From contig DASVNH010000241.1 of the NCBI GenBank assembly GCA_036383955.1, positions 24,261 to 88,260 on the forward strand: 64,000 nucleotides of DNA. The letters are read 5' to 3'. The DNA is from Planctomycetota bacterium (GTDB taxonomy: Bacteria > Planctomycetota > MHYJ01 > JACPRB01). Both the position numbers and the translations under genes were made by a program. Numbering within the stretch: position 1 is the first letter of the stretch; every line of letters starts with the position of its first letter. Below the pieces are notes generated by a model. The model searched no databases. It saw only the letters and a list, made by a program, of their open reading frames with translations, and was not told where the DNA came from. Positions 813-64,000 of the stretch are shown here, in pieces.

Positions 813-845
813 AAGCCGGCGCCCTCGACCTCCGAGGACGCCGGC
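806..845 (-). terminator. Rho-independent terminator for the minus-strand gene 856..2046
   Basis: The minus-strand RNA folds GCCGGCGUCCUCG-GAGGU-CGAGGGCGCCGGC (845..815, 12 of 13 bp). It is followed directly by UUUUAUUUU (814..806). It lies 10 nt after the TAA at 858-856 and overlaps the stop of the convergent plus-strand gene. Confidence 0.7.
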
Positions 846-855
846 CCGATCGATC

Positions 856-2046
856 TTACTTGGTCGCGGTGTTCCGCAGCGCGGAGACGCACTGGCCGTT
901 GGACCTCAGGTACTCGCCCTGAAGCCAGCTGTACAGGGGCGGCACCTTGGTCGACTCCCCCGGCTCCGCCAGGCCGAACGCGACGGCCAGCGTGGTCGGT
1001 CCGAGCGGAAGCTCGCCCAGGGGGCTCTTCGTGGCGACGTGGGTCCCGCGCACCAGGACGTCGAAGCGCGTCACGACATCCCCCTTCGCCTCGAGGACGC
1101 CCCTCAGCTGGGCCTCGAAGCGGCGATTGCCCGCTTCCTCGAGGAGCAGGCTCCCTTCCAGAAGGAACGTCTTGCCGTCGGGGATGATCTGGATCCGCAG
1201 GCTCTTGAGGTGTTCCGGCATCCAGCGGGCGTGAACGCCCCGCGTGTTGTCGACGAGGTGGAAGCGGATCAGGCGTTCCACGAAAGAGTTCGGCAGGGAG
1301 CCCTTGGCCAGCTCCCGCGCCTCGACCTGGGTGGCCCAGAGGCGGTCCTTGCCCACGGCGTCGCGGATCATCTGGTAGCGCGACAGATTCGTGGCCTGCC
1401 ACTTGGCTTCGAGGAGCTTCGCGGCCACCTCGATCACCAGGCCTCCCTCCGGCGGCAGGGGGGTCGCGTTGCGGTCCACCTTGGAACGGTCGAGAGGAGC
1501 GACGTCCGCGGGAGGCTTGTACGCCTCGTGGACCTCCTTCAGGTTGCGCGTCATGGTCCCGTTGTCGGGGCGTGGGTACATCCAGCCCTTCAGCAGGGTG
1601 CCGTCGGGCGCGCAGATGTAGTAGCCCTGCTTCGAGTGCTTCGGCTCCGCCCGCTGGTTGACCACTTTCCGGAAGAAGTCGCCGGCCGCGTCGCGCGCTT
1701 TCAGCATCTCCGTGACGCTGGGCGCGTAGGCGACGTAATGGTCGCGCAGGAGCTTCAGGGTCTCGTCGTTCGCGAAGGTGGACTCACGGTCCACCACGCC
1801 GTTGTTTCAGGTGCAGCCGAGGGTCTGGCCGTCCATCGCCCAGATGAAGATCGGCTTCTTCTGCTGGATGGCGGTCTCCCGGGCGTCGTGCAGGTCGGTC
1901 TTCCAGGGAACCGACTCCCACTTCTCCTTCGCGCGCAGCTGGGCGTGGATCGACGTGAACTCCTCGGGCGTGAGAGGCGCGGGATCCTGTCCCCAGGCCA
2001 GGGCTCCGCCGGCGGCGGCCAGGCACAGCATCAGGGCGTGCTTCAT
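856..2046 (-). CDS. Candidate selenoprotein: secreted thioredoxin-fold (DUF255/Thioredoxin_7-like) protein with in-frame UGA (C-T-U motif)
   Basis: The last 80 codons of track ORF 1807..3813 start at ATG 2046 with signal peptide MKHALMLCLAAAGGALAWG. They share a minus-strand frame with ORF 856..1797, separated only by TGA 1809-1807 plus 3 codons. The downstream ORF has only a GTG start and no SD. The thioredoxin-fold signature spans the TGA (..KKPIFIWAMDGQTLGC-T-U-NNGVVDRESTFANDETLKLLRDHYV..). If the TGA is a true stop, this call becomes 1807..2046 plus 856..1797. Confidence 0.6.
1777..1809 (-). promoter_or_regulatory. In-frame UGA plus SECIS-like stem-loop
   Basis: UGA is at 1809-1807. After 11 nt comes GGUGGAC-CGUGA-GUCCACC (1795..1777): 7 perfect bp and a 5-nt G-containing loop 19-23 nt downstream of the UGA. 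The stem extends by GCG/CGC across a small internal loop. Confidence 0.55.
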
Positions 2047-2114
2047 CGCGGTTCTCCTCAGCATCCGCGAGCATTTCACGGAGACCGCCCGGATTGGCCC
2101 GAAAAAAACGGAAT

Positions 2115-3740
2115 CTAAGATTTCGCGGCGGCGGGCTTGCCCGACACGACCTTGCGGTCGGGGCCCAGCGTGAGCACCACGTCCTGCAGGGGCTCCTGGA
2201 TGACCTCCGAGCCTTCTCCGATCTCCACGGTCACGGGCGGATGGAGGTGGCCCGTGACGGCGATCGACGTCGGACGTCCGTCCTCCCGCCCCGCTTCCAG
2301 GCGCTGCCGCCGGCGCCGCAGCCCCCGGATCTCGTCGAGGGCCTGGATCTCCTTGCGGAGGATCGAGATGTAGAGCGCCTGGTGGTCCGGCGCCAGGCTC
2401 ACCGCCGACCGGCCGGCGCCCACGAACTGGCCCTTGAGGTCGTCGATCTTGACCAGCGTCTCCACGTTCTCGCGGATGCGCTTGACCAGCTCGGCGAGGA
2501 GCGGGCCCCGCAGGTCCTGCACGCCGACGCGGACGGTGGTGGGCAGGCCGAACGCGGAGCCGATCGTATGGGCGACCACGCCGCGGAAGGCCGAGACTTC
2601 GCCGCCTTCGATCCGCCCGCGGGAGGCGCGCGCCACGACGCGGCCGCTCGACGCCACCCGGCTCTCCACGATCGCGTCCGCCACGAACACGTCGCCGACG
2701 GCTCGCACGGTCGCGTCGGTCACCGAGCGGGTGAAGACGCGCCCTTCCGCCTCCACGGTCGCCTTGCCTTCGATCGCGCCGCCGACCCAGATGTCCCCCG
2801 AGGCCGAGAGCGACGCGGCCTCCGTGTTGCCGGCGATGAGGATGTCGCGCGCCTGGATCCGGACCGGGCCGGTGACGTGGCCGGTGACGAGGACGTTGCC
2901 GTCGAAGGCGACGTCCTGCCCGACGCTGACCTGGCCGTCGACCACGTGGAAGGGGACCAGGTCGAGCGCCTCGTCGCCGACGACGAGGCTGCCGCGCCCG
3001 AGCGCGTAGACCTCGCGGCCCTCGGCCTGGAGCTGCAGGCCCTCGCCGATGGCGAGGCTGAGCGGCTTGCCGGAGACGGCGGGGAGCTTGTTGCCCCGGA
3101 CGTCGCGCCCCGGCTTGCCCGGGGTGGCGGGGGTGATCCGCGCCACCAGGGTGCCGGCCTTGACGTCCTCCACGAGCGCGGCGAGGTCGCCGAAGAAGGA
3201 GCTGTCGGGATCGATGAGCATGCGCTTGTCGAAGGCCTTGACGCCGAAGGACACCGAGCCGTCCTCGCCGTCCTCGGCGGGCTGGCCGGTCGCGACGAGG
3301 AGCCGGTAGACGGTTTCGCGGCGGACGGAGGCGACTTCGCAGGCGGCCTTGACGACGTCCTCCTGGACGCCGTGGGCGATGCCGAGGGAGCGGACGCGGG
3401 CGAGGACCTGGGCGGGGGAGAGGGGCGCGCCGCCGGCCCGGGCGGGAACCAAGGTGAGCCGCGCCTCCATCGGGGTTTCGGCGATCACGATGACGGCGTC
3501 GTCCTTGCCGCGCTCGCCGGACGGCATGAGATAGAAGCGCTCGAACTCGCTGAGGATCACGCTGAGGCGGCGGAGGCGGGCGACATCCATCTCGGACTGG
3601 ATGGCGGAGCGGAGCAGGTTTTCGACTGAGACGACGGCGGCGCCGTCGCGCTGGGAATCGGGCGAGCTGAGCAGCTCCTCGGCCTTGCGGATCAGCTCGA
3701 GCAGGCGGGGGGGGATCAGATCGCGCTTCGGACTGTCCAT
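2115..3740 (-). CDS. FapA/DUF342 family protein
   Basis: ATG at 3740 is preceded by GGGAG. The long central region of repeated beta-helix-like segments (VxGNVxxxGxV.., IxAxGDIxVxG..) and a C-terminal coiled-coil segment are typical of DUF342. The first 20 codons of track ORF 2115..3800 were discarded. Confidence 0.7.
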   Translation of the reverse strand: MDSPKRDLIPPRLLELIRKAEELLSSPDSQRDGAAVVSVENLLRSAIQSEMDVARLRRLSVILSEFERFYLMPSGERGKDDAVIVIAETPMEARLTLVPARAGGAPLSPAQVLARVRSLGIAHGVQEDVVKAACEVASVRRETVYRLLVATGQPAEDGEDGSVSFGVKAFDKRMLIDPDSSFFGDLAALVEDVKAGTLVARITPATPGKPGRDVRGNKLPAVSGKPLSLAIGEGLQLQAEGREVYALGRGSLVVGDEALDLVPFHVVDGQVSVGQDVAFDGNVLVTGHVTGPVRIQARDILIAGNTEAASLSASGDIWVGGAIEGKATVEAEGRVFTRSVTDATVRAVGDVFVADAIVESRVASSGRVVARASRGRIEGGEVSAFRGVVAHTIGSAFGLPTTVRVGVQDLRGPLLAELVKRIRENVETLVKIDDLKGQFVGAGRSAVSLAPDHQALYISILRKEIQALDEIRGLRRRRQRLEAGREDGRPTSIAVTGHLHPPVTVEIGEGSEVIQEPLQDVVLTLGPDRKVVSGKPAAAKS

Positions 3741-3944
3741 GACCGGGGGCTCCCTCACTTGATCTGCGCTCCCCCCTCCCTCTGGAGTATGTCCCCGCAC
3801 ATTTAATATGCAACTGAAAAAGGGAAAGTGAGTTCAGGGAAAACCTGAATGATTCCCGAGGCCCGTTGAAAGGCGGCTCCCCCGCGCGCGCCGGCGAAAA
3901 AGGAGTAGACTGGCGGCCGAAAAGGCGATGCGGAGACTGGCACG

Positions 3945-8378: not shown

Positions 8379-9980
8379 CTAGCGGCCCGCCTCCAGGAAG
8401 GCCTTCCAGCGCGCCCAGTCTAATCCGAAGTCCTTCTCGGTGGCCGCGCGCAGGGTCTCCGCGATCGCGACTTCCCCCGCCGACGGCGTCTGGGTCGTGT
8501 CGACCTCCGGCAGCCACTCCAGGGCGTCCGCGGGTTTCGCCTTCAGCGCGGCCCGCAGCAGGAGGACGTAGCCGTGCGTCGACTTGCCCTCCTTCACGAC
8601 GGCGGCCGGCGAGGGACGTCGGTCGGGAGAAACCGCCTCGTTGCCGCGCGCCTTGAGGATCGCGAAGAGGTCCATGTCCCGGGAAAAGTTCGGCTCGTCC
8701 TTGTCCTTGGAAAAGCGCCGCGCCAGATCCTTGGACGGGATCGTGACGGTGCGGACGAGGTTCTCGCGGATGACCCAGCCGTAGGCGGCTTCCCCCACGC
8801 CGAGGCCTTGCTTCAGATCCTGGCAGGCCGCGTCGAGGAACTGCTCGTGGCGGTCCTTCGGATACGCGTCGGTGAAGAGGAAGTCGCGGTCGCGCAGGGC
8901 CTGCCCGAGGTAGTTGATGAAGTTCGAGCGGGCCGGCAGCTTCGCTTCGAAGAGGGCGTAGAAGGGCGTGGTCCGCGCCGCGTGGCTCTTGCGCGCGGCG
9001 ACGTAGGCCTTGGCGCCCTTGTCGGCTTCCTTGAGCGCCTCTTTGACCGTGTCGACGTCCAAAGGCTCGACCTTGACGCCGGAGGGGAAGGGCGGCTTGA
9101 GCGCGCCGGCCTTGAACAAGGTCGCGAGCGTCGCCTCCACCGCGAACGGCTCGAGGTAGCCGCCTCGGTAGGAAGCGAGCGCCCCGTCGCGCCTTCCATA
9201 GTCCTCGACGGCCAGGCTCGCGGAACGGGCGGTCTCCAGGTCCTTGGCCCGCCACGCGAGCAGGAATTGGGCTTCCAGCACGCGGGGATGCAGCCAGTGC
9301 CCGAGGAGGAAGTCGACGGCCTCCGGGCTCTTCAGCAGGCGCTCTTCGATCAGGCGCCGGGCGGCCTTGGCGACGCGAGGGGCGTCGATCCGCGGCGGCC
9401 CCGCGGGAGCGGCCAAGCCCTCCAGGATGTTCACGAACGCCGGGAGGATCAAGCGGGATTGATTGATGGCGCGATGCTGGAAGCAGGCGCGGACCAGCGG
9501 GTCGGGCTCGTGCTTCTCCAGCCACTCGAGGCTCCAGAGGTCGAAGGCCCGCACGGGGCAGTCCCACTTGTTCCGCTTGAGGGCCTCTTCGACCGCCTCC
9601 GTCGCGGACTTCCAATAGTCGGGGTTCTGCCGCGCGTTCAGGAGGATCCACCGCGCCCGGAAGAGCGACGCGTGAGAGGAGCCGGGAAGGGCTTCTTCGA
9701 CGGCCTTCACCGCCGCCTCATCCGCGGGCGTCGCGGACGCGCGCAGGACGGCCGCGAGGGGGCTGGGGCCGTCGAGGGTTCCGCCCTTGAACGCGGCGGC
9801 CCAGAGCTGGAGCTGGGCGTCGTTCGGCGCCGCCGCGAGCTGCTCGTCGGCGAGCTTTCGCAGCTTCTCGACGCCCTTGTCGAGGCGCTGGGCGGGCGTC
9901 GGCGGCGGAGGAGGTGGGGGCGGCGGCTCGGAGCAGGAGGCGATCAGCAGGACCCAGAGGGGAAGCGATCGGATCCTCAT
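8379..9980 (-). CDS. Hypothetical lipoprotein with polyproline linker
   Basis: Signal/lipobox MRIRSLPLWVLLIASC followed by SEPPPPPPPPPTP. Largely helical 533-aa body with no recognised domain. Confidence 0.65.
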   Translation of the reverse strand: MRIRSLPLWVLLIASCSEPPPPPPPPPTPAQRLDKGVEKLRKLADEQLAAAPNDAQLQLWAAAFKGGTLDGPSPLAAVLRASATPADEAAVKAVEEALPGSSHASLFRARWILLNARQNPDYWKSATEAVEEALKRNKWDCPVRAFDLWSLEWLEKHEPDPLVRACFQHRAINQSRLILPAFVNILEGLAAPAGPPRIDAPRVAKAARRLIEERLLKSPEAVDFLLGHWLHPRVLEAQFLLAWRAKDLETARSASLAVEDYGRRDGALASYRGGYLEPFAVEATLATLFKAGALKPPFPSGVKVEPLDVDTVKEALKEADKGAKAYVAARKSHAARTTPFYALFEAKLPARSNFINYLGQALRDRDFLFTDAYPKDRHEQFLDAACQDLKQGLGVGEAAYGWVIRENLVRTVTIPSKDLARRFSKDKDEPNFSRDMDLFAILKARGNEAVSPDRRPSPAAVVKEGKSTHGYVLLLRAALKAKPADALEWLPEVDTTQTPSAGEVAIAETLRAATEKDFGLDWARWKAFLEAGR

Positions 9981-10013: not shown

Positions 10014-11255
10014 TCAACGCTCGTCGACGCAGTAGAGGTGCGTGTTCGAGCGGATGAGCAGGCGGCCGTCGGCCGTCACCGGCGCGGCGTGGAAGAGGCT
10101 GCGGTCGCCGAGCTCGTTCGTGGCGAGCAGCTGGAACGTCGGCGAGGCCGCCACGACGTACGTCCGCCCGCCGCGGCCCACGTAGTAGATCTTCCCTTCG
10201 GCGAGGATCGGCGACGCGTAGACCTGGTCGCCCCGCCCCAGCCGCTCCTGGTAGACGATCTTGCCGGTGGCCGCCTCGGCGCAGAAGGCGATGCCCTGGC
10301 TGTCGCTCGCGAAGTAGAGATGCCCGTCGTGGTAGAGCGGCGAGGGGACGTTGGAGTTCTTCTCCGCGATCCAGAGGCGGTGGGTCGCCGTCACGTCGCC
10401 CCGGCCGCCGAGCCGCACCGCCAGCGCGCCGCCCGACCGCCCGCCGATCCAGTACGAGACGCCGTCCGCGACCACGGCCGTCGGCACCATGTACCACGGG
10501 ATGTTCGTCTCGCAGGACCAGAGCTCCTTGCCCGTCTTCGGATCCAGGCCGAGGATCTTGCCCAGGATCGCCACGAGCAGCTCCGTCGCGCCTTCCTTGG
10601 TCTTCGCCAGCACCGGCGTATTCCACGACTCCTTGATGCCGCGCGTCCGCCAGGCTTCCTTGCCGGTCGCGACGTCCAGCGCGACCAGCGACTGGCTCTC
10701 CACGCTCGCGTTGATGATCACCGTGTTCTCGAAGAGCAGCGGCGAGGCCGCCGAGCCCCAGCCGTTGAGGGCGTCGCCGACGTCCGCCGTCCACAGCTCC
10801 TTGCCCGTCAGGTCGAAGGCCTTCGCGCCCGACTTCCCGAAGAAGCAGTAGATCCGCTTGCCGTCGCTCGCCGGCGTGCTCGACGCGTAGCCGTGCTCGT
10901 CGCGGATCTTCGGCTGCTCGGGGAGCTTGGCCTCGACGTCCTTCGTCCACAGCAACTTGCCGCTCTTCCGCTCGAGGCAGACGAGATGCCGCTTGAGCGC
11001 GTTCATGTCGCCCGGCGCGCCGGGCACGTTGAAGCCGCTGTAGGCCGTCAGGTAGATCTTGTCGCCGACGACGATGGGGCTCGACGTCCCCGGCCCCGGG
11101 AGCGCCGTCTTCCAGACGACGTTCTGCGTCGCGCTCCACGTGGTGGGGAGCGTCTTCTCGGCGCTCACGCCCTGCGCGGGCCCGCGGAACTGCGACCAGT
11201 CCTGCGGGAGCCCTTCGACGGAGCTCAGGGCAAGGAGCGTGAGGCAGATGTTCAT
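10014..11255 (-). CDS. PQQ-like beta-propeller repeat protein (BamB-like fold), secreted
   Basis: Signal peptide, then DWSQFRGP...VVWK...SSPIVVGDKIYL and repeated G.xLW / xDGxxYxxxxxGxxxAxD blades. Confidence 0.8.
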   Translation of the reverse strand: MNICLTLLALSSVEGLPQDWSQFRGPAQGVSAEKTLPTTWSATQNVVWKTALPGPGTSSPIVVGDKIYLTAYSGFNVPGAPGDMNALKRHLVCLERKSGKLLWTKDVEAKLPEQPKIRDEHGYASSTPASDGKRIYCFFGKSGAKAFDLTGKELWTADVGDALNGWGSAASPLLFENTVIINASVESQSLVALDVATGKEAWRTRGIKESWNTPVLAKTKEGATELLVAILGKILGLDPKTGKELWSCETNIPWYMVPTAVVADGVSYWIGGRSGGALAVRLGGRGDVTATHRLWIAEKNSNVPSPLYHDGHLYFASDSQGIAFCAEAATGKIVYQERLGRGDQVYASPILAEGKIYYVGRGGRTYVVAASPTFQLLATNELGDRSLFHAAPVTADGRLLIRSNTHLYCVDER

Positions 11256-16442: not shown

Positions 16443-18752
16443 GTGATGCTGGTCGCCGCGCTCGTCCTGGCCGTCGCGCAAGAGAAGCCTTCGCCCGAGG
16501 CCCTCGAGTTCTTCGAGAAGAAGATCCGGCCGGTCCTCGTCGAGCGCTGCTATTCCTGCCACAGCGCCGAGGCGAAGAAGCTCAAGGGCGCGCTGCGGGT
16601 GGACAGCCGGGCCGACATCCTTCAGGGCGGCGACACCGGGCCGTCGGCCGTCCCCGGCGATCCCGAGAAGAGCCTCCTCATCAAGGCGCTCCGCTACACC
16701 GACCCCGACCTCCAGATGCCGCCGAAGGAGAAGCTGCCGGCGGCGGTCGTCGACGACTTCGCCCGCTGGATCGTGATGGGCCTGCCCTGGCCCGGCGGCG
16801 GCGACGCGGCCAAGCCGGCCAAGCGCGAGGGGATGGAGATCCGCGCGGAGGACCGGGCCTACTGGGCGTACCGGCCCGTGAACCGGCCTGTCGTGCCCGC
16901 CGGCGCGCATCCCGTCGACGCCCTCCTGCTCGCGAAGCTCCGCGACAAGGGCCTGAGCCTCTCGCGCCCGGCGTCGCGCGAGGTCCTGATCCGCCGGGCG
17001 GCCTACGACCTCACCGGCCTGCCGCCGAGCGCGGAGGAGGTCGACGCCTTCCTCAAGGACCCCGCGCCCGACGCCTACGAGAAGCTGCTCGAGCGGCTCC
17101 TGGCGAGCCCGCGCTACGGCGAGAAGTGGGGGCGGCACTGGCTCGACCTCGTCCGCTTCGCGGAGACCAACGGCTACGAGCGCGACGGCGACAAGCCCAA
17201 CGCCTGGCGCTACCGCGACTACGTGATCCGCGCCTTCAACGAGGACAAGCCGTACGACCTCTTCCTCAAGGAGCAGCTCGCCGGCGACGAGATGGAGCCG
17301 CGGACGTCCGACGCGATCATCGCCACCGGCTACTACCGCCTCGGGCTCGTCGACGACGAGCCCGCCGACCGCGACCAGGCGAAATTCGACGGCCTGGACG
17401 GCTACGTTTCGACGACGTCCCAGGTCATGCTCGGCCTGACGATCGGCTGCGCCCGCTGCCACGACCACAAGAAGGACCCGATCCCGCAGACGGACTACTA
17501 CCGCTTCCTGGCGTTCTTCCACGGCGTCAATCCGACGGCGCGCGACGGCCCCGGCGCCGAGACCGTCCTGGCGCGCGACGAGGCCGGCCACAAGGCCTTC
17601 GAGGAGAAGCTGCGGCCCCTCGAGGAGGAGCTGAAGCGGAAGCCGGACGAGCCCCGCCGCAAGGCGCTGCAGAAGGCGATCGAGGACCTCAAGAAGTCGC
17701 CGCCGAAGGACGAGAAGGCCCTGAGCGTGGCGGAGACCGGGCGCCCCCCCGACACCTTCCTGCTCCGCCGCGGCAATCCGCGCGTCGAGGGCGAAAAGGT
17801 CGAGCCGGGCTTTCCCGTGGTCCTCGGCTTCCCCGACCCCGACCTCTCCAAGACGAAGAAGGGCCAGAGCAGCGGACGTCGCACCGTCCTCGCCGAGTGG
17901 ATCGCGAACCCCGCCAACCCGCTGACCTCGCGGGTCATGGCCAACCGCCTCTGGCAGCACCACTTCGGCCGCGCGATCGTCCCGACGTCCAGCGACTTCG
18001 GCCGCCTGGGCGAGGCGCCGACCCATCCGGAGCTTCTCGACTGGCTGGCCTCGGAGCTCGTCGCGCGCCGCTGGAAGCTCAAGGACATGCACCGGCTGCT
18101 CATGACGTCGAACGCCTACCGCGCCGCTTCGGCGGACGACCGCTCCGCCCTCGCGAAGGACCCGGCGAACGAGCTGTTCTGGCGCTATCCCATGCGGCGC
18201 CTGACGGCCGAGGAGCTCCGCGACTCGATCCTCGCGGTCAACGGCACGCTCAACCTGAAGGCGGGCGGGCCGAGCGTCTTCCCGCCCCTGCCGAAGGAGG
18301 TGCTGGCGACGTCCTCCACCCCCAAGAGCGCGTGGGGGAAGTCGACGCCCGAGGAAGCCGCGCGCCGCAGCGTCTACATCAAGGTCAAGCGCTCGCTGCT
18401 CGTGCCGCTGCTGGCGGCCCACGACTTCGCCGACACGGACTCCAGCTGCGCGGTGCGCTTCGCCACGACGGTGCCCACGCAGGCCCTGACGCTGCTCAAC
18501 AGCGAGTTCATGAACGAGCAGGCCGCGCTCTTCGCCCGGAAGCTGGAGCGGGAGGCGCCGGGGGACGTCGACGCCCAGATCCGCCTCGCCCTGCGCTCGG
18601 TGACGCAGCGGCCGGCTTCGGCGAAGGAAGTCGCGCGGGGCCGGGCGCTGATCGACGCCCTGCGCGGGCAGGACGGCCTGGACGCGGGGCGGGCGCTGAC
18701 GGGCTTCTGCCTGATGGCGTTGAACCTGAACGAATTCGTTTATTTGGATTGA
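16443..18752 (+). CDS. PSCyt1/PSCyt2/PSD1 (DUF1549/DUF1553) planctomycete cytochrome-c-domain protein
   Basis: N-terminal CYSCHSAEAKKLKGALRVDSR, then DUF1549-type YGEKWGRHWLDLVRFAETNGYERD, then CARCHDHKKDPI and DUF1553-type ANRLWQHHFGRAIV. Confidence 0.9.
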   Translation: MMLVAALVLAVAQEKPSPEALEFFEKKIRPVLVERCYSCHSAEAKKLKGALRVDSRADILQGGDTGPSAVPGDPEKSLLIKALRYTDPDLQMPPKEKLPAAVVDDFARWIVMGLPWPGGGDAAKPAKREGMEIRAEDRAYWAYRPVNRPVVPAGAHPVDALLLAKLRDKGLSLSRPASREVLIRRAAYDLTGLPPSAEEVDAFLKDPAPDAYEKLLERLLASPRYGEKWGRHWLDLVRFAETNGYERDGDKPNAWRYRDYVIRAFNEDKPYDLFLKEQLAGDEMEPRTSDAIIATGYYRLGLVDDEPADRDQAKFDGLDGYVSTTSQVMLGLTIGCARCHDHKKDPIPQTDYYRFLAFFHGVNPTARDGPGAETVLARDEAGHKAFEEKLRPLEEELKRKPDEPRRKALQKAIEDLKKSPPKDEKALSVAETGRPPDTFLLRRGNPRVEGEKVEPGFPVVLGFPDPDLSKTKKGQSSGRRTVLAEWIANPANPLTSRVMANRLWQHHFGRAIVPTSSDFGRLGEAPTHPELLDWLASELVARRWKLKDMHRLLMTSNAYRAASADDRSALAKDPANELFWRYPMRRLTAEELRDSILAVNGTLNLKAGGPSVFPPLPKEVLATSSTPKSAWGKSTPEEAARRSVYIKVKRSLLVPLLAAHDFADTDSSCAVRFATTVPTQALTLLNSEFMNEQAALFARKLEREAPGDVDAQIRLALRSVTQRPASAKEVARGRALIDALRGQDGLDAGRALTGFCLMALNLNEFVYLD

Positions 18753-18757
18753 GAGTT

Positions 18758-20206
18758 ATGAGCTTTTGCGGACGCACGCGGCGCGAGTTCCTCTGGCAGG
18801 CGGGCGGCGGCTTCGGGGCCGCGGCGCTGTCGAGCCTGCTCGGCGACGACTTCTTCGCGTCCCAGGCGCTGGCGGCGGACGGGCAGTCGGCGTACACGAG
18901 CCCGCTGGCGCCGAAGAAGCCGCACTTCAAGGCCAAGGCCAAGAGCGTGATCTTCCTCTTCATGTACGGCGGCCCCAGCCAGGTGGACACGTTCGACTAC
19001 AAGCCCGAGCTCTATCCGCTGGACGGGAAGACGATCCCGGTGAAGACGTTCGGGCGCGGCGGGAAGAAGAACGAAGGGCGCGTGGTCGGCCCCAAGTGGG
19101 CCTTCAAGCCCTACGGGAAGTGCGGCAAGCTCGTGTCCGACCTCTTCCCCCACGTGGGCACCTGCGTCGACGACATCGCCTTCCTGCATTCGATGACGGC
19201 CGACTCCCCGATCCACGGCTCGGCCATGCTGATGATGAACAGCGGCCGCGTGCTGAGCGGCCATCCCTGCATGGGCTCCTGGGTCAACTACGGCCTCGGC
19301 ACCGTGAACCAGAACCTGCCGGGCTTCGTCGTCATGCTCGACGAGAAGGGCGGTCCCATCAGCGGCGCCAAGAACTGGTCGAGCGGCTACATGCCCGCCT
19401 CGTACCAGGGCGTCGTGCTGCGCCCCACCGGCCAGCCCATCCTCGACCTGGAGCGGCCGGCGGGGATGACCGAGCCGGCGCAACGGAGGATCCTCGACGC
19501 CCTCAAGGACTTCAACCAGGAGCACGAGGCGACGCGCTCCAGCAACTCCAACCTCCAGGCGCGCATCGCCAGCTACGAGCTCGCCTTCAACATGCAGAAG
19601 CACGCGCCGGAGGCCGTCGACCTCTCCAAGGAGCCCGACCACATCCGCGAGCTCTACGGGCTGAACGAGAAGCGCACGGAGGACTTCGGGAAGAAGTGCC
19701 TGATGGCGCGACGGCTGGTGGAGCGGGGCGTGCGCTTCATCCAGCTCTACTCGGGCGGCGCGCACAACGACGACAACTGGGACGCCCACAGCGACATGGT
19801 GAAGAACCACACCTTCCACGCCGGGAACACGGACAAGCCGATCGCCGGCCTGCTCAAGGACCTGAAGCAGCGCGGGCTGCTCGACGAGACGCTGGTCGTC
19901 TGGGGCGGCGAGTTCGGCCGCCAGCCCACCGCCGAATACGCGCAGGGCACGGGCCGCGACCACAATTCCTACGGCTTCACGATGTGGGTCGCGGGCGGCG
20001 GCATCAAGGGCGGCATCAGCGTGGGCAAGACCGACGAGCTGGGCAGCGCGGCCATCGAGGACCGCTTCCACGTGAAGCACCTCCACGCGACCATCCTCCA
20101 CCAGCTCGGCCTCGATCCCGAGAAGCTCTCGTTCTTCTTCAGCGGGCTCGATCAGAAGCTCGTCGGCGTCGAAGGGGCGGAGCCCATCCACAAAATCATC
20201 GCGTGA
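18758..20206 (+). CDS. DUF1501 (sulfatase-like) protein with Tat signal
   Basis: ATG lies 6 nt after the previous stop. Tat motif GRTRREFLWQAGGG. DUF1501 hallmarks FLFMYGGPSQVDTFDYKP, SMTADSPIHG, WGGEFGRQP, GRDHN. In-frame Met inside track ORF 17126..20206. Confidence 0.9.
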   Translation: MSFCGRTRREFLWQAGGGFGAAALSSLLGDDFFASQALAADGQSAYTSPLAPKKPHFKAKAKSVIFLFMYGGPSQVDTFDYKPELYPLDGKTIPVKTFGRGGKKNEGRVVGPKWAFKPYGKCGKLVSDLFPHVGTCVDDIAFLHSMTADSPIHGSAMLMMNSGRVLSGHPCMGSWVNYGLGTVNQNLPGFVVMLDEKGGPISGAKNWSSGYMPASYQGVVLRPTGQPILDLERPAGMTEPAQRRILDALKDFNQEHEATRSSNSNLQARIASYELAFNMQKHAPEAVDLSKEPDHIRELYGLNEKRTEDFGKKCLMARRLVERGVRFIQLYSGGAHNDDNWDAHSDMVKNHTFHAGNTDKPIAGLLKDLKQRGLLDETLVVWGGEFGRQPTAEYAQGTGRDHNSYGFTMWVAGGGIKGGISVGKTDELGSAAIEDRFHVKHLHATILHQLGLDPEKLSFFFSGLDQKLVGVEGAEPIHKIIA

Positions 20207-27948: not shown

Positions 27949-30900
27949 ATGAGAACGCTCCTCGTTTCGCTCCTTCTCCTCGTCCCCCAGGAAGCCGAGA
28001 AGTCCAAGGGCATGTTCAAGCTCGGGCCGGGGCTCTCGATCGAGCTCTTCTCCGCCGAGCCGCAGTTCGTCAATCCCGTCGCCTTCCACGCCGACGAACA
28101 GGGCCGCTTTTACGTCGTCGAGACGCACCGCCTGGGGAACGCGACCTTCGACATCCGCGGCCGCGGAGCCTGGGTGGACGACGACCTCGCCTGCCGCACG
28201 GTGGCCGACCGCGAGGCCATGCACCGCAAGCACATGGGCGCGAAGTACGACGCCCTGACCGCGTCGGAGCGGGTGCGGCTCGTCGAGGACACGGACGGCG
28301 ACGGCCGCGCGGACAAGGCGACGACCTTCGCCGAGAACTTCGGGACGCCGGCCGACGGCATCGCCTCCGGCGTGCTCGCGCGGAAGGGCGAGGTCTGGTT
28401 CGCGAACATTCCGAACCTGTGGAAGCTGAAGGACGTCGACGGCGACGGCAAGGCCGAGGTCCGCCAAGTCGTGCATACGGGCTACGGCGTGCGGCTCGCG
28501 TTCATCGGCCACGACCTGCACGGCCTGACGTTCGGGCCCGACGGGAAGCTGTACTTCTCCTGTGGCGACCGCGGGCTGCACGTGAAGCAGGGCGACCGGG
28601 TGATCTCGAATCCGGATTCGGGCGCGGTCCTGCGCTGCGATCCGGACGGCTCGAACCTCGAGGTCTACTGCACGGGCTTGCGCAATCCGCAGGAGCTCTG
28701 CTTCGACGACGTCGGCAACCTCTGGACCGGCGACAACAACTGCGACGCCGGCGACAAGGCGCGCTGGACCTATCTCATGGAAGGCGGCGACGTCGGCTGG
28801 CGCATCGGCTACCAGCAGGCGCCGGGCCGCGGGCCCTGGATGGCGGAGAAGCTCTGGGAGCTCGACGCCTGGAAGACCGCGCCGTCGCAGCTGCCGCCGA
28901 TCGCGCACGTCGGGCACGGGCCGTCGGGCCTCACGTTCAACCCCGGCGGCGCCGCGCTGCCGGCCGCCTACGACGGCCACTTCTTCATGTGCAACTTCCC
29001 GGGCAACGTCCTGACCTGGACGGTCCGGCCCAAGGGCGCGGGCTTCGAGGTCCAGAACCTCCGCGAGCTGATGTCCAACGTCTGGCCGACGGATGTCGAC
29101 TTCGCCCCCGACGGCGGCCTCTACGTGTCCGACTGGGTCGACGGCTGGGGCATGCCGGGCAAGGGGCGGCTCTGGCGCCTCTTCGATCCGGCGCGGGCGG
29201 AGGGGGCCAAGGGCGTGAAGCGGCTGCTGAACGAGGGCTTCGAGAAGCGGACGCCCGACGAGCTGTCCACGCTCCTCGGCCATCCGGACCGGCGCGTCCG
29301 GCAGGAAGCCCAGTTCGAGCTGGCGCGGCGCGGGACGTCCTCCGCGGCCGTCTTCGCGAAGGCGGCGGAGAATGGCCCGATCCACCGCCGGCTTCACGCG
29401 TTGTGGGGCGCGGGACAGGTCGGCGCCCTCGGCGTCGCGTTCGCGCATCTGAACGATCCCGAGGCCGAGGTGCGCGCGCAGGCGGCGCGGGTCGTCGGCG
29501 ACGGCCGGCACGGGCTGTCGATGCCGGGGCTGCTCGACCTCCTCAAGGATCCGAGTCTGAGGGTGCGCGGCTTCGCGGCGATGGCGCTCGGCAAGCTGGG
29601 GAAGGCGGAGGCCGTCGGGCCGATCCTCGCGATGCTCCGCGGCAACGAGGACGCCCACTTGCGCCACGCGGGCGTGATCGCGCTGGCGTGGATCGGGGAC
29701 GCCGCGGCCCTCGCGGCGCGCGCGAAGGATGAAGCGACGACGGTCCGGCTGGCCGCGCTGCTGGCCCTGCGCCGGATGGGACGGCCGGAGGTGGCCGCGT
29801 TCCTCGACGATCCGGAGCTGGCGCTGGAAGCGGCGCGCGCGATCAACGACGCGCCGGTGAACGCGGCGATGCCCGCGCTCGCGGCCCTGCTGGCGCGGCC
29901 GGGCCTGTCGGAGCGGATCCAGGTCCGGGCGATCAACGCGGCCTTCCGGACGGGGAAGGCGGCGGAGCTCGCGGCGTTCGCGGCGCGGGGGGATGTCGGG
30001 GAAGCCGCGCGGGCGGAGGCGCTCAAGGCCCTGGCGGACTGGGAGAAACCCTCGGGCCGGGACCGCGTGCTCCACGTGTGGCGGCCGCTGGAGCCGCGCG
30101 ATCCGGGTCCGGCGCGCGAGGTGATGGACGCGCGCCTCGGCGCGCTGCTGAGCGGGACGCCGGCAACCGTGCGGATCGAGGCGTTGAAGGCCGCGCTCGC
30201 GCTGGGCGCGAAGGACGTCGGCCGGGAAGCGTCCGCGCTGGCGCTGGACCGGAAGGCGCCGGGCGCGGCGCGGGCGGAGGCGCTGAAGGCGCTGGCCCGG
30301 CTGAAGGATCCCGCGCTGAACGCGGCGGTGGCGGCGGGGCTGTCGGATCCGGACGCCGGGGTCCGCAAGGAGGCCACGCGGCTGGCGGGCCAGGCGAAGA
30401 TCGCGAACGCGGCGGCGCTGCTGGACGAGTTGGTGACGAAGGACGGCCCGGTCGAGACGCGGCAGGCGGCGCTGGGGGCGCTCGCGGACCTGCCCGAGGG
30501 CGAGGCGATCCTCGCCCGCTACCTGGACCGGGCGGCGGCGGGGTCGTTCCCGGCGGCGCTGCGGCTCGACCTCCTGGACGCCGCGGCGAAGCGGCCCGGG
30601 CTGAAGAAGCTCGAGGCCGGGTGGGGCGACTGCCTGGAAGGCGGCGACGCGGACGCGGGGCGCCGGATCTTCTTCGAGCGCTCCGACGCCAACTGCGCGC
30701 GCTGCCACAAAGTGGGGGGGACGGGCGGGGAGGTCGGTCCGGCCCTGCCGACCCCGGCCACGAAGAAGAGCCGCGCGTACCTCCTGGAGTCCCTGACGAA
30801 GCCCAACGCGATCATCGCGGAGGGCTACGGCCAGACGCTCCTCCAGATGGAAAGCGGGGCCGTCGAAACCGGCCGGATCGAGAAGGAGTCGGACGTCGAC

Positions 30901-31059
30901 CTCGTCCTGATCCTGCCCGACGGCCAGCGCCGGACGCTGGCGAAGAAGGACGTGCGGGCGCGGAAGGCGGGCCTGTCGGCGATGCCCGAGGACGCGCTCA
31001 AGGCGCTCAGCCGGCGGGACGTCCGGGACCTGGTCGAATACCTGGCGGGATTGCCCTGA
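27949..31059 (+). CDS. PVC-type 'membrane-bound dehydrogenase' beta-propeller + HEAT repeats + cytochrome c haem-binding domain
   Basis: N-terminal LSIELFSAEPQFVNPVAFHADEQGRFYVVE. A propeller with DGDGKAD-type loops. A long HEAT/ARM-like region (VRQEA..VRAQAA..VRGFAA..VRLAAL..). C-terminal CARCHKVGGTGGEVGPAL. Confidence 0.85.
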   Translation: MRTLLVSLLLLVPQEAEKSKGMFKLGPGLSIELFSAEPQFVNPVAFHADEQGRFYVVETHRLGNATFDIRGRGAWVDDDLACRTVADREAMHRKHMGAKYDALTASERVRLVEDTDGDGRADKATTFAENFGTPADGIASGVLARKGEVWFANIPNLWKLKDVDGDGKAEVRQVVHTGYGVRLAFIGHDLHGLTFGPDGKLYFSCGDRGLHVKQGDRVISNPDSGAVLRCDPDGSNLEVYCTGLRNPQELCFDDVGNLWTGDNNCDAGDKARWTYLMEGGDVGWRIGYQQAPGRGPWMAEKLWELDAWKTAPSQLPPIAHVGHGPSGLTFNPGGAALPAAYDGHFFMCNFPGNVLTWTVRPKGAGFEVQNLRELMSNVWPTDVDFAPDGGLYVSDWVDGWGMPGKGRLWRLFDPARAEGAKGVKRLLNEGFEKRTPDELSTLLGHPDRRVRQEAQFELARRGTSSAAVFAKAAENGPIHRRLHALWGAGQVGALGVAFAHLNDPEAEVRAQAARVVGDGRHGLSMPGLLDLLKDPSLRVRGFAAMALGKLGKAEAVGPILAMLRGNEDAHLRHAGVIALAWIGDAAALAARAKDEATTVRLAALLALRRMGRPEVAAFLDDPELALEAARAINDAPVNAAMPALAALLARPGLSERIQVRAINAAFRTGKAAELAAFAARGDVGEAARAEALKALADWEKPSGRDRVLHVWRPLEPRDPGPAREVMDARLGALLSGTPATVRIEALKAALALGAKDVGREASALALDRKAPGAARAEALKALARLKDPALNAAVAAGLSDPDAGVRKEATRLAGQAKIANAAALLDELVTKDGPVETRQAALGALADLPEGEAILARYLDRAAAGSFPAALRLDLLDAAAKRPGLKKLEAGWGDCLEGGDADAGRRIFFERSDANCARCHKVGGTGGEVGPALPTPATKKSRAYLLESLTKPNAIIAEGYGQTLLQMESGAVETGRIEKESDVDLVLILPDGQRRTLAKKDVRARKAGLSAMPEDALKALSRRDVRDLVEYLAGLP

Positions 31060-32877: not shown

Positions 32878-33882
32878 TTATTGCGGGAGGACCGGGATGA
32901 CGGCCGCCCGCGGGTCCCGCTTGTCGCCCGTCAGCGCGTGGAGGAAGAGCTCGAGGTCCTTCTTCTCGGCCTCGTCGAGCTTGAAGGGCAGCATGAAGAT
33001 CGACATCTTCGGGTGCTTCTCTTTCTCGCCCACGACCTTCTCGTAATGGTCGATCACCTCGCGCAGGGTCTTGAGCGAGCCGTCGTGCATGTAGGGCGCC
33101 GTCAGCGCCGCGTTCCGGATCGTCGGCGTGCGGAAGGCGCCGGTCTCTTTCTCGTCCTTCGAGACGGCGACGCGGCCCTGGTCGTCGCCCGGCAGCCCGA
33201 TGTTGTGGTAGCGCTTGTCCATGAAGGCCGGGCCCGAGTGGCAGACGGCGCAGCGCGCCTTGCCGGTGAAGAGCTCGAAGCCCCGCTTCTGCGCGTCCGT
33301 CATCGCCTTGTCGTCGCCGCGCGCCCAGCGGTCGAAGGGGGAGTCGAGGTCCACCACCGTCCGCTCGAACGCGGCGATCGCCATCGCGATCCGGTCGAAC
33401 GTCACCTCGCCGCCGAAGACCTCGTTGAAGCGCTTCGCGTAGCCGGGGATCCCGGCGACGGTGGACGTCGCCTTCTCCGCCGACCCGCCCATCTCGGCCG
33501 CGCTCTGGATCGGACCCTTGGCCTGATCCTCGAGCGTCGCCGCCCGGCCGTCCCAGAACTGCGTCTCGTAGTACGCCGCGTTCAGGACCGAGGGCGACGA
33601 GCGGCCCAGCTTCGCGCCGTTGATGCCGACGCCCTTCGCCAGGCCGTCGGCCCAGCCGAGCGCGGGGTTGTGGCAGGTCGCGCAGGAGATCGTCCCGTTG
33701 CCCGAGAGCCGCGGATCGTAGTAGAGCATCCGCCCCAGCTCGACCTTCGCGTCGCTCATCGCGTTGTCCTTCGGCACGGGCGGCGCCGGCAGCGGCCCGA
33801 GGAAGGCGGGCAGGTCGCGGGACTCCTGCTTCTGCTGGGGGGCCGCCGCCAGCAGCAGCAGGGCGAGGGGGGCGAAGCGCAT
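32878..33882 (-). CDS. Di-haem cytochrome c peroxidase (CCP/MauG family)
   Basis: Signal peptide. Two haem motifs, CATCHNPALGWADG and CAVCHSGPAF. Also FRTPTIRN and APYMHDGS. GGAG SD 5 nt upstream of the ATG. Confidence 0.9.
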   Translation of the reverse strand: MRFAPLALLLLAAAPQQKQESRDLPAFLGPLPAPPVPKDNAMSDAKVELGRMLYYDPRLSGNGTISCATCHNPALGWADGLAKGVGINGAKLGRSSPSVLNAAYYETQFWDGRAATLEDQAKGPIQSAAEMGGSAEKATSTVAGIPGYAKRFNEVFGGEVTFDRIAMAIAAFERTVVDLDSPFDRWARGDDKAMTDAQKRGFELFTGKARCAVCHSGPAFMDKRYHNIGLPGDDQGRVAVSKDEKETGAFRTPTIRNAALTAPYMHDGSLKTLREVIDHYEKVVGEKEKHPKMSIFMLPFKLDEAEKKDLELFLHALTGDKRDPRAAVIPVLPQ

Positions 33883-63646: not shown

Positions 63647-63765
63647 CGGGGGCTCCTTTCGATCTGTTACCTCGATAACCGAACTACCCCAAGCGCGCAT
63701 TGAGATGTGGCGGATTCCTATTGAGATTTTTGACCGCCGGAAACGGAGCCCGCCAGGGGCCCTCC

Positions 63766-63795
63766 TTGACACGCACCGGGGAGACCGGCTGCAAT
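63766..63795 (+). promoter_or_regulatory. Putative sigma70-like promoter, leaderless arrangement
   Basis: Perfect TTGACA (63766..63771), 18 nt, TGCAAT (63790..63795), 7 nt, ATG 63803. No SD. Confidence 0.4.
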
Positions 63796-63802
63796 CCTCA
63801 CC

Positions 63803-64000
63803 ATGAGGCTCGGCGCGCTGGTGCGTCCCCTGACGGCGGCGCAATTCCTGGACCGCCACTGGCCGGGCGTGCCGCGGGTCGCGCACGGGGACGTCGGCCG
63901 CCTGGGCGACTGGGTCCGCGACCCGGCGTGGTCGGATCCCTCGAAGCTGCTGCGCGGGACGCACGACGGGATCCGCGTCTGGCGTCCCGGGGCCGGCGGC
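63803..64000 (+). CDS. Possible cupin-4/JmjC-type oxygenase, 3'-truncated at window edge
   Basis: The frame is open for 66 codons to the window end (MRLGALVRPLTAAQFLDRHWPGVPRVAHGD...). The FL(D/E)RHW..P...G opening resembles the N-termini of cupin-4 / ribosomal-oxygenase-like proteins. It is absent from the track because no stop falls inside the window. Confidence 0.45.
   Translation, partial: MRLGALVRPLTAAQFLDRHWPGVPRVAHGDVGRLGDWVRDPAWSDPSKLLRGTHDGIRVWRPGAGG

Follow-up and report, generated by a model that had tools for sequence, protein, structure and literature searches.

A predicted secreted selenoprotein family with a thioredoxin fold and a C-x-U motif in Planctomycetota and Verrucomicrobiota

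Introduction

The published model of the bacterial SECIS element (bSECIS), with Escherichia coli fdhF as its archetype, describes a hairpin within the coding sequence just 3' of the UGA. [quoted passage not shown] A 2026 review tabulates 119 prokaryotic selenoprotein families (PMC13188914, Table 1), four of them with a C-x-U motif. The Trx7/PDZ domain-containing selenoprotein (NF041199), found in marine metagenomes in the GOS survey (PMC9312934), has likewise been predicted to be a bacterial selenoprotein; it combines a Thioredoxin_7-type fold with a CxxU motif and a PDZ partner domain. Another family, GOS_A, is reported as 2 selenocysteine (Sec) and 155 Cys forms. Complete selABCD sets are on record in several Planctomycetes (PMC4807772, Table S8).

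The closest described folds to that considered here are the Thioredox_DsbH/DUF255 domain (PF03190), which forms the N-terminal domain of YyaL/SPATA20-type proteins and is represented by structures 7tkv and 3ira, and Thioredoxin_7 (PF13899). These share with the protein described below a thioredoxin-like fold, a recognisable pattern, KPIF...(redox motif)...ES/TF.D.E...LL...FV.V..D, and a redox residue that N-caps helix alpha1. Where the present protein departs from them is in its C-x-U motif, whose partner Cys lies upstream and in which Gly stands where CxxC has its second Cys, and in its signal peptide. We analysed a 64-kb stretch (64,000 nucleotides; hereafter the window) of a Planctomycetota contig, in which the minus-strand region 2046..856 is very probably one gene, encoding a selenoprotein of 396 residues that is secreted or periplasmic, Sec being inserted, we infer, by SelB.

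Results and discussion

One reading frame interrupted by a single UGA

From ATG 2046 to TAA 856 the minus strand holds a single reading frame whose only interruption is TGA 1809-1807. The ATG opens 79 codons, ending ...IWAMDGQTLGCT, before the TGA; beyond it come 9 nt (AAC AAC GGC) and then, in the same frame, a 313-codon ORF (856..1797) which runs to TAA 858-856. GC3 is 0.93-0.95 on either side of the UGA. The features of the locus are as follows.

856..2046, minus strand: complete selenoprotein CDS (predicted), 396 codons including Sec80, then stop TAA 858-856
2054..2058, minus strand: Shine-Dalgarno-like AGGAG, 7 nt 5' of ATG 2046, from direct sequence reading
1990..2046, minus strand: signal peptide MKHALMLCLAAAGGALAWG, cleavage site approximate
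1513..1974, minus strand: DsbH/DUF255-like thioredoxin-fold domain, approximately residues 25-178, spanning the UGA; boundaries approximate, mapped from a model of a Cys homologue (P0077)
1813..1815, minus strand: Cys78 codon TGC, proposed resolving partner of Sec80; Cys in all 82 Sec forms
1807..1809, minus strand: UGA within the frame, codon 80, proposed to specify selenocysteine; TGA in all 82 copies, Cys in full-length homologues, paired by hhalign with the first Cys of the 3ira CxxC
1777..1795, minus strand: SECIS-like hairpin, 7-bp stem GGUGGAC (1795-1789)/GUCCACC (1783-1777), loop CGUGA (1788-1784)
1772..1799, minus strand: the same hairpin with its lower GCG/CGC extension, the RNAfold MFE structure
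859..1479, minus strand: C-terminal domain, residues 190-395, about 200 residues, beta-rich, with a conserved RFHLVDNTRG motif
813..847, minus strand: intrinsic terminator, a 16-bp G+C-rich stem and U tract, 9 nt past the stop codon

The ORFs, frame, 9-nt gap and hairpin all lie where an earlier sequence-only reading of the window had placed them, and its remark that the downstream ORF begins with GTG and has no Shine-Dalgarno sequence is borne out. That reading had supposed that automatic ORF calling would miss the protein entirely; GenBank does in fact annotate it, though because of the internal stop codon it is divided there between two hypothetical proteins of 79 aa (VF950_24755) and 312 aa (VF950_24750). 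UGA is otherwise an ordinary stop in the window, as had also been said, and indeed the commonest, ending 18 of the 37 other genes called by GC3. No other selenoprotein candidate emerged from the window: TGA 10016-10014, which is followed by a gene in the same frame, is a plain gene stop.

Conservation across the UGA

Codon 80 is TGA in every one of 82 copies (80 species-level genomes plus the window), which cover Planctomycetota, Verrucomicrobiota and related MAGs; TAA or TAG is never found. Three closer relatives (L083, L084 and L085) likewise have TGA. The protein is strongly conserved on both sides of this codon, as ...FIWAMDGxxLGC[TV]-U-NNGV[LIV]DR..., and conservation at the protein level with synonymous variation extends over codons -16 through -1 and +1 through +25. 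Within the motif itself, TGC and TGT swap freely at Cys78. At the N-terminus, a hydrophobic signal-like segment is present in 78 of 81 Sec-form homologues.

The sequence-only reading had called for an alignment in which Cys homologues would place a Cys at the UGA and continue beyond it. Ten homologues do so, colinearly. Eight have C-T-C (P0077, P0103, P0188, P0189, P0296, P0198, P0204 and P0220) and two carry the Cys at the U column with no upstream Cys, as T-T-C (P0321) and S-T-C (P0326). Such full-length Cys homologues are rare and independent. Of the 731 clusters that the family comprises at 50% identity, most are Sec forms; hits in genomes number 292. Approximately 62 of the best 150 family representatives begin exactly past the U column, and the N-terminal matches are without exception (67/67) fragments of 70-92 residues ending at it. 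The pattern of two independently conserved genes was not seen, in that homologues neither end nor begin independently at this position. Together with the Cys/Sec column, the conserved UGA almost certainly marks the internal stop as a selenocysteine codon.

A conserved, covarying hairpin

The hairpin begins 11 nt 3' of the UGA and its loop 18 nt after it. Considered alone, it is only modestly unusual for sequence of 71% G+C (MFE -16.7 kcal/mol, z = -2.26, with 7 of 200 shuffles folding as well), so that its significance rests on comparative data. The 7-bp stem is identical in L083 and L085. The core helix conserved throughout the family is of 5 bp, 1793-1789 paired with 1783-1779; the GCG/CGC extension is restricted to the subfamily of the window and is not kept family-wide. 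The freeze on synonymous sites is confined to codons +1 and +4 to +9, coinciding with the hairpin, and the frozen Arg codon is CGT in 80 of 82 copies, compared with 16% in the remainder of these genes. Two third-codon positions paired in the stem show compensatory synonymous changes (CG in 68 copies, GC in 9, UA in 3 and GU in 2). The covariation score of 0.117 compares with 0.046 in shuffles, none of 500 shuffles reaches it, and every slid register scores lower. RNAalifold recovers the same helix, outside which no covariation was found. Since the 5-bp family helix overlaps a highly conserved peptide, part of the hairpin conservation is protein-driven. One Cys homologue, L081, retains the hairpin.

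Set against the bSECIS model, the element is alike in its position within the coding sequence just 3' of the UGA and in every dimension: a small apical loop of 5 nt whose second nucleotide is G and third U, a stem of 7 bp (5 family-wide) and a UGA-to-loop distance of 18 nt. It has no sequence similarity to described SECIS elements, from which its core of only 5 bp and its family-specific loop CGUGN set it apart. The SECIS proposed from the sequence alone thus agrees with the published model on all counts, but Rfam covariance models give no match, either at the gathering threshold over the whole window or at E <= 10 in 1650-1900.

A thioredoxin fold with a proposed rearrangement of the active site

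Neither half of the gene had appeared to be a complete domain, and Pfam, AlphaFold2 (AF2), Foldseek and hhalign concur that the two halves give one thioredoxin-like fold only when joined: the N-terminal piece contributes the signal peptide and strand beta1, the C-terminal piece the rest of the fold. Pfam matches are below threshold, with Thioredox_DsbH in 16 and Thioredoxin_7 in 11 of 21 members (best E 0.0015). The protein of the window itself scores 13.2-15.8 bits with Thioredoxin_7 and 12.6 bits with Thioredox_DsbH, well short of the gathering cut-off of 27. Profile searches of PDB sequences (A1, A5) gave matches at chance level only.

The AF2 model of this domain was made for the natural Cys homologue P0077 rather than for the window protein. 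It has a pLDDT of 87 and pTM of 0.88, falling to a pLDDT of about 60 around the active-site loop, and places strand beta1 before the U column and helix alpha1 after it. Its best Foldseek matches are 7tkv_A and 7tkv_B, a Thioredox_DsbH protein (probability 1.00, 126 columns, rmsd 3.3 A). An hhalign comparison with 3ira (E 3e-4, probability 40%) pairs C-T-U-N-N-G with S-T-C-H-W-C; the matching of U with the opening Cys of CxxC comes from this one alignment, the 7tkv alignment placing its gaps elsewhere. Thus aligned, the motif is not CxxC: Gly fills the second Cys position, and the partner Cys lies at -2.

The C-terminal domain is structurally new. The AF2 model for the window's own sequence is confident (pLDDT 92.7, pTM 0.89), yet this domain has no PDB fold match at E <= 0.001 and no Pfam or NCBIfam match. 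It differs from the C-terminal partner domain in 7tkv, a protein of 668 residues.

A plausible course of expression and action can be put together from these features. Translation would start at ATG 2046 and the hairpin 1795-1777 would recruit SelB with Sec-tRNA(Sec) at UGA 1809-1807; Sec would be inserted at residue 80 and 316 further codons read as far as TAA 858-856, the terminator at 847-813 presumably ending the transcript. The signal peptide would direct export. In the protein Sec80 would stand where CxxC has its first, nucleophilic Cys, N-capping helix alpha1 in a fold distantly of DsbH/DUF255 type, with the second canonical Cys replaced by Gly and the partner of Sec80, Cys78, two residues upstream in C-T-U. 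A selenol/thiol redox cycle by way of a Cys78-Sec80 selenenylsulfide is the likeliest chemistry, and the conserved C-terminal domain, some 200 residues long, may hold the substrate.

Alternative explanations of the internal stop

The GenBank annotation implies either two independent adjacent genes or a pseudogene produced by nonsense mutation. Gene callers at both GenBank and JGI do give two ORFs, and a GTG lies 9 nt past the stop. Nevertheless, the split falls at the same codon in 82 of 82 copies, which span phyla and 35-100% identity and have both parts under purifying selection, conservation of a kind not expected of a pseudogene. The incomplete domains, the full-length Cys forms and the absence of both a Shine-Dalgarno sequence before the GTG and a terminator between the two halves of 856..2046 argue further against two genes. 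Moreover, as only the N-terminal piece has a signal peptide, two separate polypeptides would land in different compartments. We regard this explanation as very improbable. That the TGA arose through an error in sequencing or assembly, which the MAG origin of the contig might suggest, is effectively refuted: the identical sequence, TGA included, occurs in an independent Logan assembly (L084), and the same TGA in the 81 other copies as well as in L083 and L085.

Improbable too, if slightly less so than two genes or a pseudogene, is decoding or partial termination at UGA 1809-1807 without SelB, whether through hairpin-stimulated near-cognate read-through (Trp, Cys or Arg) or through regulated termination yielding mostly a 79-residue secreted peptide. 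Consistent with it are the shortness of the hairpin, its lack of an Rfam match and the results of searches for the Sec machinery. Neither selA, selB, selD nor tRNA-Sec was found in the 64-kb window (Pfam on approximately 34 GC3-called genes, and a tRNA search), no Sec machinery in the flanks of related loci (1.2 Mb) and no tRNA-Sec in 60 related loci; tblastn over 1.2 Mb of loci with an approximate E. coli SelD sequence as query produced no match. Two related contigs carry, 8-10 kb from the gene, neighbours matching the PF03841 'SelA' model; these are not true selA (47 bits against a cut-off of 268) and are assigned by NCBIfam to a DgaE-family lyase (TIGR01437, 190 bits). Against decoding without SelB, homologues have a redox-active Cys at this position, which lines up with the nucleophile of CxxC, a classic Sec/Cys signature, and the hairpin geometry and G-U loop match the bSECIS model exactly. 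Read-through signals would allow other stops, but TGA alone occurs in all 82 copies, and UGA is an efficient ordinary stop in the window. Insertion of Sec at this codon is consequently the reading that we favour.

Relation to known selenoprotein families

The read-through protein has no match at E <= 1 in NCBIfam release 20, and in Pfam only the weak Thioredoxin_7 match; none of the 119 families of the 2026 review (PMC13188914, Table 1) matches by family model. The C-x-U spacing, held to be unusual in the sequence-only reading, is indeed uncommon but is already recorded there for four families. These share the spacing of the Sec motif, but their domains are unrelated or different and the present protein has no Pfam or NCBIfam model match to them. 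The NF041199 model does not match the read-through protein either. GOS_A is unlikely to be the present family, from which, lacking a model or accession, it is set apart only by its reported Sec/Cys ratio, the opposite of that found here. Literature searches for the motif gave no match; one 'hypothetical' candidate is mentioned from a Porphyra-associated planctomycete. On this basis we consider it correct to predict an uncatalogued family of secreted thioredoxin-fold selenoproteins, large in Planctomycetota and Verrucomicrobiota.

Every member that we met in public annotation is entered as two 'hypothetical proteins'. A family profile would mend hundreds to thousands of gene models in genomes and metagenomes of Planctomycetota and Verrucomicrobiota, and the family brings a large group, for the most part of Sec forms, to phyla hardly mentioned in selenoproteome surveys. 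Since its Cys homologues are rare, it would tend to escape methods that depend on pairs of Sec and Cys forms. The combination of a C-x-U centre, with Sec at the CxxC nucleophile position, and an adjoining domain without structural relatives suggests an uncharacterised redox reaction.

More tentatively, and with a little less than even confidence, we picture a selenoenzyme family very widespread in the PVC group, with its Sec nucleophile, upstream resolving Cys and new C-terminal domain, whose two-domain module also has non-redox relatives serving as extracytoplasmic sensors of Ser/Thr kinases and FecR-type anti-sigma factors. If these relatives do act as sensor domains, it would follow that the module binds selectively to some molecule of the envelope or the environment, one which the Sec forms might chemically transform.

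Experiments are made feasible by Stieleria marina K23_9 (locus L078), a carrier that is in culture and whose genome is complete; the gene lies near position 2,307,200 of NZ_CP036526.1. A metagenome scan yielded two loci only. Across 80 loci no conserved neighbour genes were found. Sulfatase, DUF1501-like and PSCyt/PSD1-like genes recur near the family in these 80 loci; genes of these kinds are very abundant in Planctomycetota and Verrucomicrobiota.

Reading frame and annotation

The gene at window 2046..856 (minus strand) is very probably a genuine selenoprotein gene, the case resting on the codon at the UGA, Cys-containing homologues, a covarying hairpin and a fold spanning the UGA. The frame from ATG 2046 encodes MKHALMLCLAAAGGALAWG...KKPIFIWAMDGQTLGCT before reaching TGA 1809-1807, past which the unchanged frame reads NNGVVDRESTFANDETLKLLRDHYV... 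over 316 codons until TAA 858-856. The accompanying features are:

2058-2054, minus: Shine-Dalgarno-like AGGAG before ATG 2046, read from the sequence
856..1797, minus: GTG ORF of 313 codons, from a mechanical ORF list
847-813, minus: intrinsic terminator with a 16-bp stem, 3' of TAA 858-856

No terminator was found between the two halves of the gene. The region is identical, TGA included, in an independent Logan assembly (L084, run SRR10695391), and all coordinates in the sequence-only reading, for the ORFs, the TGA and the hairpin, proved correct. Its statement that automatic ORF calling would miss the protein needs correcting, as the annotation contains the gene in two parts: the N-terminal 79 aa are identical to GenBank VF950_24755 and the C-terminal piece is identical to "hypothetical protein VF950_24750" (Planctomycetota MAG). 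The mechanical ORF list also contains a 668-aa TTG ORF (1807-3813, minus) in the same frame as the N-terminal part. It overlaps the upstream FapA-like gene, whose frame differs, and is presumably spurious, long open frames of this sort being expected at 71 % G+C.

Conservation of the UGA

The protein search retrieved 426 homologues, nearly all of 295-313 aa and starting V/M-[VL]-DR exactly past the stop, and a search with the N-terminal part gave 67 fragments of 70-92 aa, every one ending ...LGCT. Scanning one genome for each species yielded 292 relatives. Codons were counted in the best 80 of these 292 loci (81 copies, two of them in L024) plus the window, and in all 82 copies the codon at the column of the in-frame UGA (the U column) is TGA. 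The motif across these copies is ...KPIFIWAMDGHPLGC[TV]-TGA-NNGV[LIV]DR..., and a signal-like hydrophobic segment is present in 78 of 81 N-termini. The closer relatives L085 (86 % identity) and L083 (59 %) have the TGA and the same 7-bp stem, and on four further contigs an ORF of 74-85 aa is separated by 9-12 nt from one of 307-313 aa. The Planctomycetota MAG locus L024 carries two paralogues 1.1 kb apart, with an in-frame TGA in both (9097-9099, 10226-10228); in the more divergent of the two the hairpin is a compensated one of 4 bp, GGAU/AUCC.

Searching exhaustively with P0077, a Cys homologue, gave 731 representative clusters; of the best 150, about 62 begin directly past the U column and 20 extend across it. 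Residues were read in the column-spanning representatives, the query and a second Cys form, P0103. The Cys that the first reading had suggested seeking at this column was found, as C-T-C in eight homologues (P0077, P0103, P0188, P0189, P0296, P0198, P0204 and P0220), as T-T-C in P0321 and as S-T-C in P0326; the remaining column-spanning homologues retain at most one redox residue. UGA is otherwise an ordinary stop, as had been claimed: 18 of the 37 GC3-called window genes end in it, so that the genetic code is unchanged.

Searches for tRNA-Sec and sel genes gave none in the window or in the flanks of related loci. Complete selABCD sets are known from several Planctomycetes (PMC4807772, Table S8). 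Neighbours with a PF03841 'SelA' domain were considered as selA and rejected, NCBIfam assigning them to the DgaE-family SelA-related ammonia lyases:

L083:19777-20933 and P0023 contig 18220-19419 (locus coordinates): PF03841 gene, 8-10 kb from the selenoprotein gene

The hairpin

The hairpin GGUGGAC-CGUGA-GUCCACC (1795-1777, minus), with its GCG/CGC extension, is the MFE structure of the 45 nt past the UGA (-16.7 kcal/mol), with a z-score of only -2.26 in a sequence of 71 % G+C. The published bacterial SECIS model (bSECIS) specifies a loop of 3-9 nt and a stem of 4-16 bp, a G within the first two loop positions with G or U as the next base, a distance of 16-37 nt from the UGA and an MFE <= -7.5 kcal/mol (PMC13188914). 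The hairpin agrees with every one of these, bearing out the SECIS-like position and shape first proposed; Rfam gave no match to it.

With numbering from the U of UGA (nt 1), the helix over the 82 copies pairs nt 17-21 with nt 27-31 around a CGUGN loop (nt 22-26), and RNAalifold returns exactly those five pairs. Pair 18-30, formed by the third positions of two codons (Leu/Val/Ile and Ser), is CG in 68 copies, GC in nine, UA in three and GU in two, and is never unpaired; pair 21-27 is CG in 80 and UA in two. The covariation score of 0.117, against 0.046 in shuffles, was reached by none of 500 shuffles and is higher than in every slid register. A sharp fall in synonymous-site entropy is confined to codons +1 and +4 to +9, with frozen AAC (82/82), GAC (79/81), CGT (80/82) and GCG (45/46), CGT making up 16 % of Arg codons elsewhere in the same genes; conserved codons flanking the hairpin region vary freely at synonymous sites. 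Judged from this codon use, an RNA-level constraint acts at codons +1 and +4 to +9 in addition to the protein constraint. The first Asn codon past the UGA (window 1806-1804, and the same place in L001-L080) is AAC in 82/82 and never AAT, compared with 57 AAC and 25 AAT at the second, and a 3' context effect on recoding is possible. In the two Cys-form loci with DNA, the hairpin is kept in L081 and lost in L082, a pattern that, at n = 2, fits relaxed constraint following a Sec-to-Cys switch.

Domains and redox centre

In Pfam the joined protein gives a weak Thioredoxin_7 match only, which spans the UGA and is absent when the halves are apart. Sub-threshold matches among 21 diverse reconstructed N-terminal domains were to Thioredox_DsbH (16/21) and Thioredoxin_7 (11/21). 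The AlphaFold2 model of the natural Cys homologue P0077 (pLDDT 87.3, pTM 0.88) has strand beta1 at 49-55, then the loop SGHPLGCTC, where confidence is about 60, and helix alpha1 from residue 65, which places the U-column residue C64 at the helix N-cap. In the PDB it matches best the Thioredox_DsbH protein 7tkv (prob 1.00, with an rmsd of 3.3 A over 126 columns). With hhalign, the family profile aligns to 3ira (E 3e-4) with C-T-U-N-N-G over S-T-C-H-W-C, gapless; in the weaker 7tkv alignment the gaps fall elsewhere. The gapless alignment implies that, compared with the CxxC of 3ira, Sec replaces the nucleophilic first Cys, Gly the second, and the partner Cys lies upstream at -2.

The C-terminal domain (residues 190-395, window 859-1479, minus), modelled separately (pLDDT 92.7, pTM 0.89), finds no PDB match by Foldseek at E <= 0.001 (E 0.03 at best, TM <= 0.29) and belongs to no family in Pfam or NCBIfam. 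It is possibly a new fold or a new domain family.

Relation to catalogued selenoproteins

The 2026 catalogue covers 119 prokaryotic families and gives, for nearly all of them, an NCBIfam, Pfam, TIGR or CDD model (PMC13188914); the read-through protein matches nothing in NCBIfam at E <= 1. The C-x-U spacing, at first called unusual, does occur in the catalogue, in four families, all of them unrelated. The Thioredoxin_7/PDZ selenoprotein has CxxU (PMC13188914), unlike the C-x-U of the present family. "Hypothetical protein GOS_A", for which 2 Sec forms and 155 Cys forms were reported, is mostly Cys whereas the present family is mostly Sec, a separation by reported counts, GOS_A having no accession. 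A 2016 study of Porphyra-associated planctomycetes mentions one unnamed "hypothetical" Sec candidate. Literature searches by motif found nothing, and none of the database homologues found for either half bears a selenoprotein name. The family appears uncatalogued, within the well-known kind of thioredoxin-fold bacterial selenoproteins decoded via an in-frame SECIS; its points of note are its size, the dominance of Sec over Cys forms, the rearranged C-x-U centre and the possibly novel C-terminal domain.

Genomic context

Across 80 loci there is no conserved neighbour gene. The window gene lies between the same-strand FapA-like gene and a convergent downstream Laminin_G_3 gene, and on two related contigs (L083:7492-9596 and the P0023 contig) the Sec-form gene has ECF sigma/FecR pairs as neighbours. 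The whole two-domain module is also fused to Ser/Thr kinases (Pkinase; P0204, P0208, P0277) and to zf-HC2/FecR anti-sigma factors (P0293, P0335, P0319), as the C-terminal and presumably extracytoplasmic domain. In most of these fused relatives at least one redox residue has been lost, but P0204 retains C-T-C. Such fusions of non-redox relatives hint at recognition of an extracytoplasmic ligand by the module. Any function assigned beyond "periplasmic selenol/thiol oxidoreductase" is presumptive. The Cys forms P0077 and P0103 have no signal peptide (L081:2838-6864, L082:3217-6218), and their genes lie directly 3' of an asparagine-synthase gene amid glycosyltransferases, a radical SAM/SPASM pair coming next in L081; this cytoplasmic setting differs clearly from the one in which the secreted Sec forms occur.

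Elsewhere in the window the gene content is typical of Planctomycetota, with PSCyt1/PSCyt2/PSD1, DUF7133 with cytochrome c, PQQ_2 propellers, a sulfatase-type enzyme and a di-haem peroxidase. The Planctomycete-typical periplasmic redox/haem proteins are at:

16443-18752, 27949-31059, 32878-33882, 61433-63964: PSCyt1-PSCyt2-PSD1, two DUF7133 proteins (one with HEAT repeats and cytochrome c) and a di-haem cytochrome c peroxidase

These are consistent with the taxonomic assignment; no link between them and the selenoprotein was established. No second selenoprotein candidate was found in the window. The only other in-frame window TGA flanked by coding signal both before and after it, 10016-10014 (minus), was rejected as recoding, since it ends a PQQ_2 propeller gene (10014-11255) and 34 nt past it, in the same frame, lies an unannotated gene of 533 aa.
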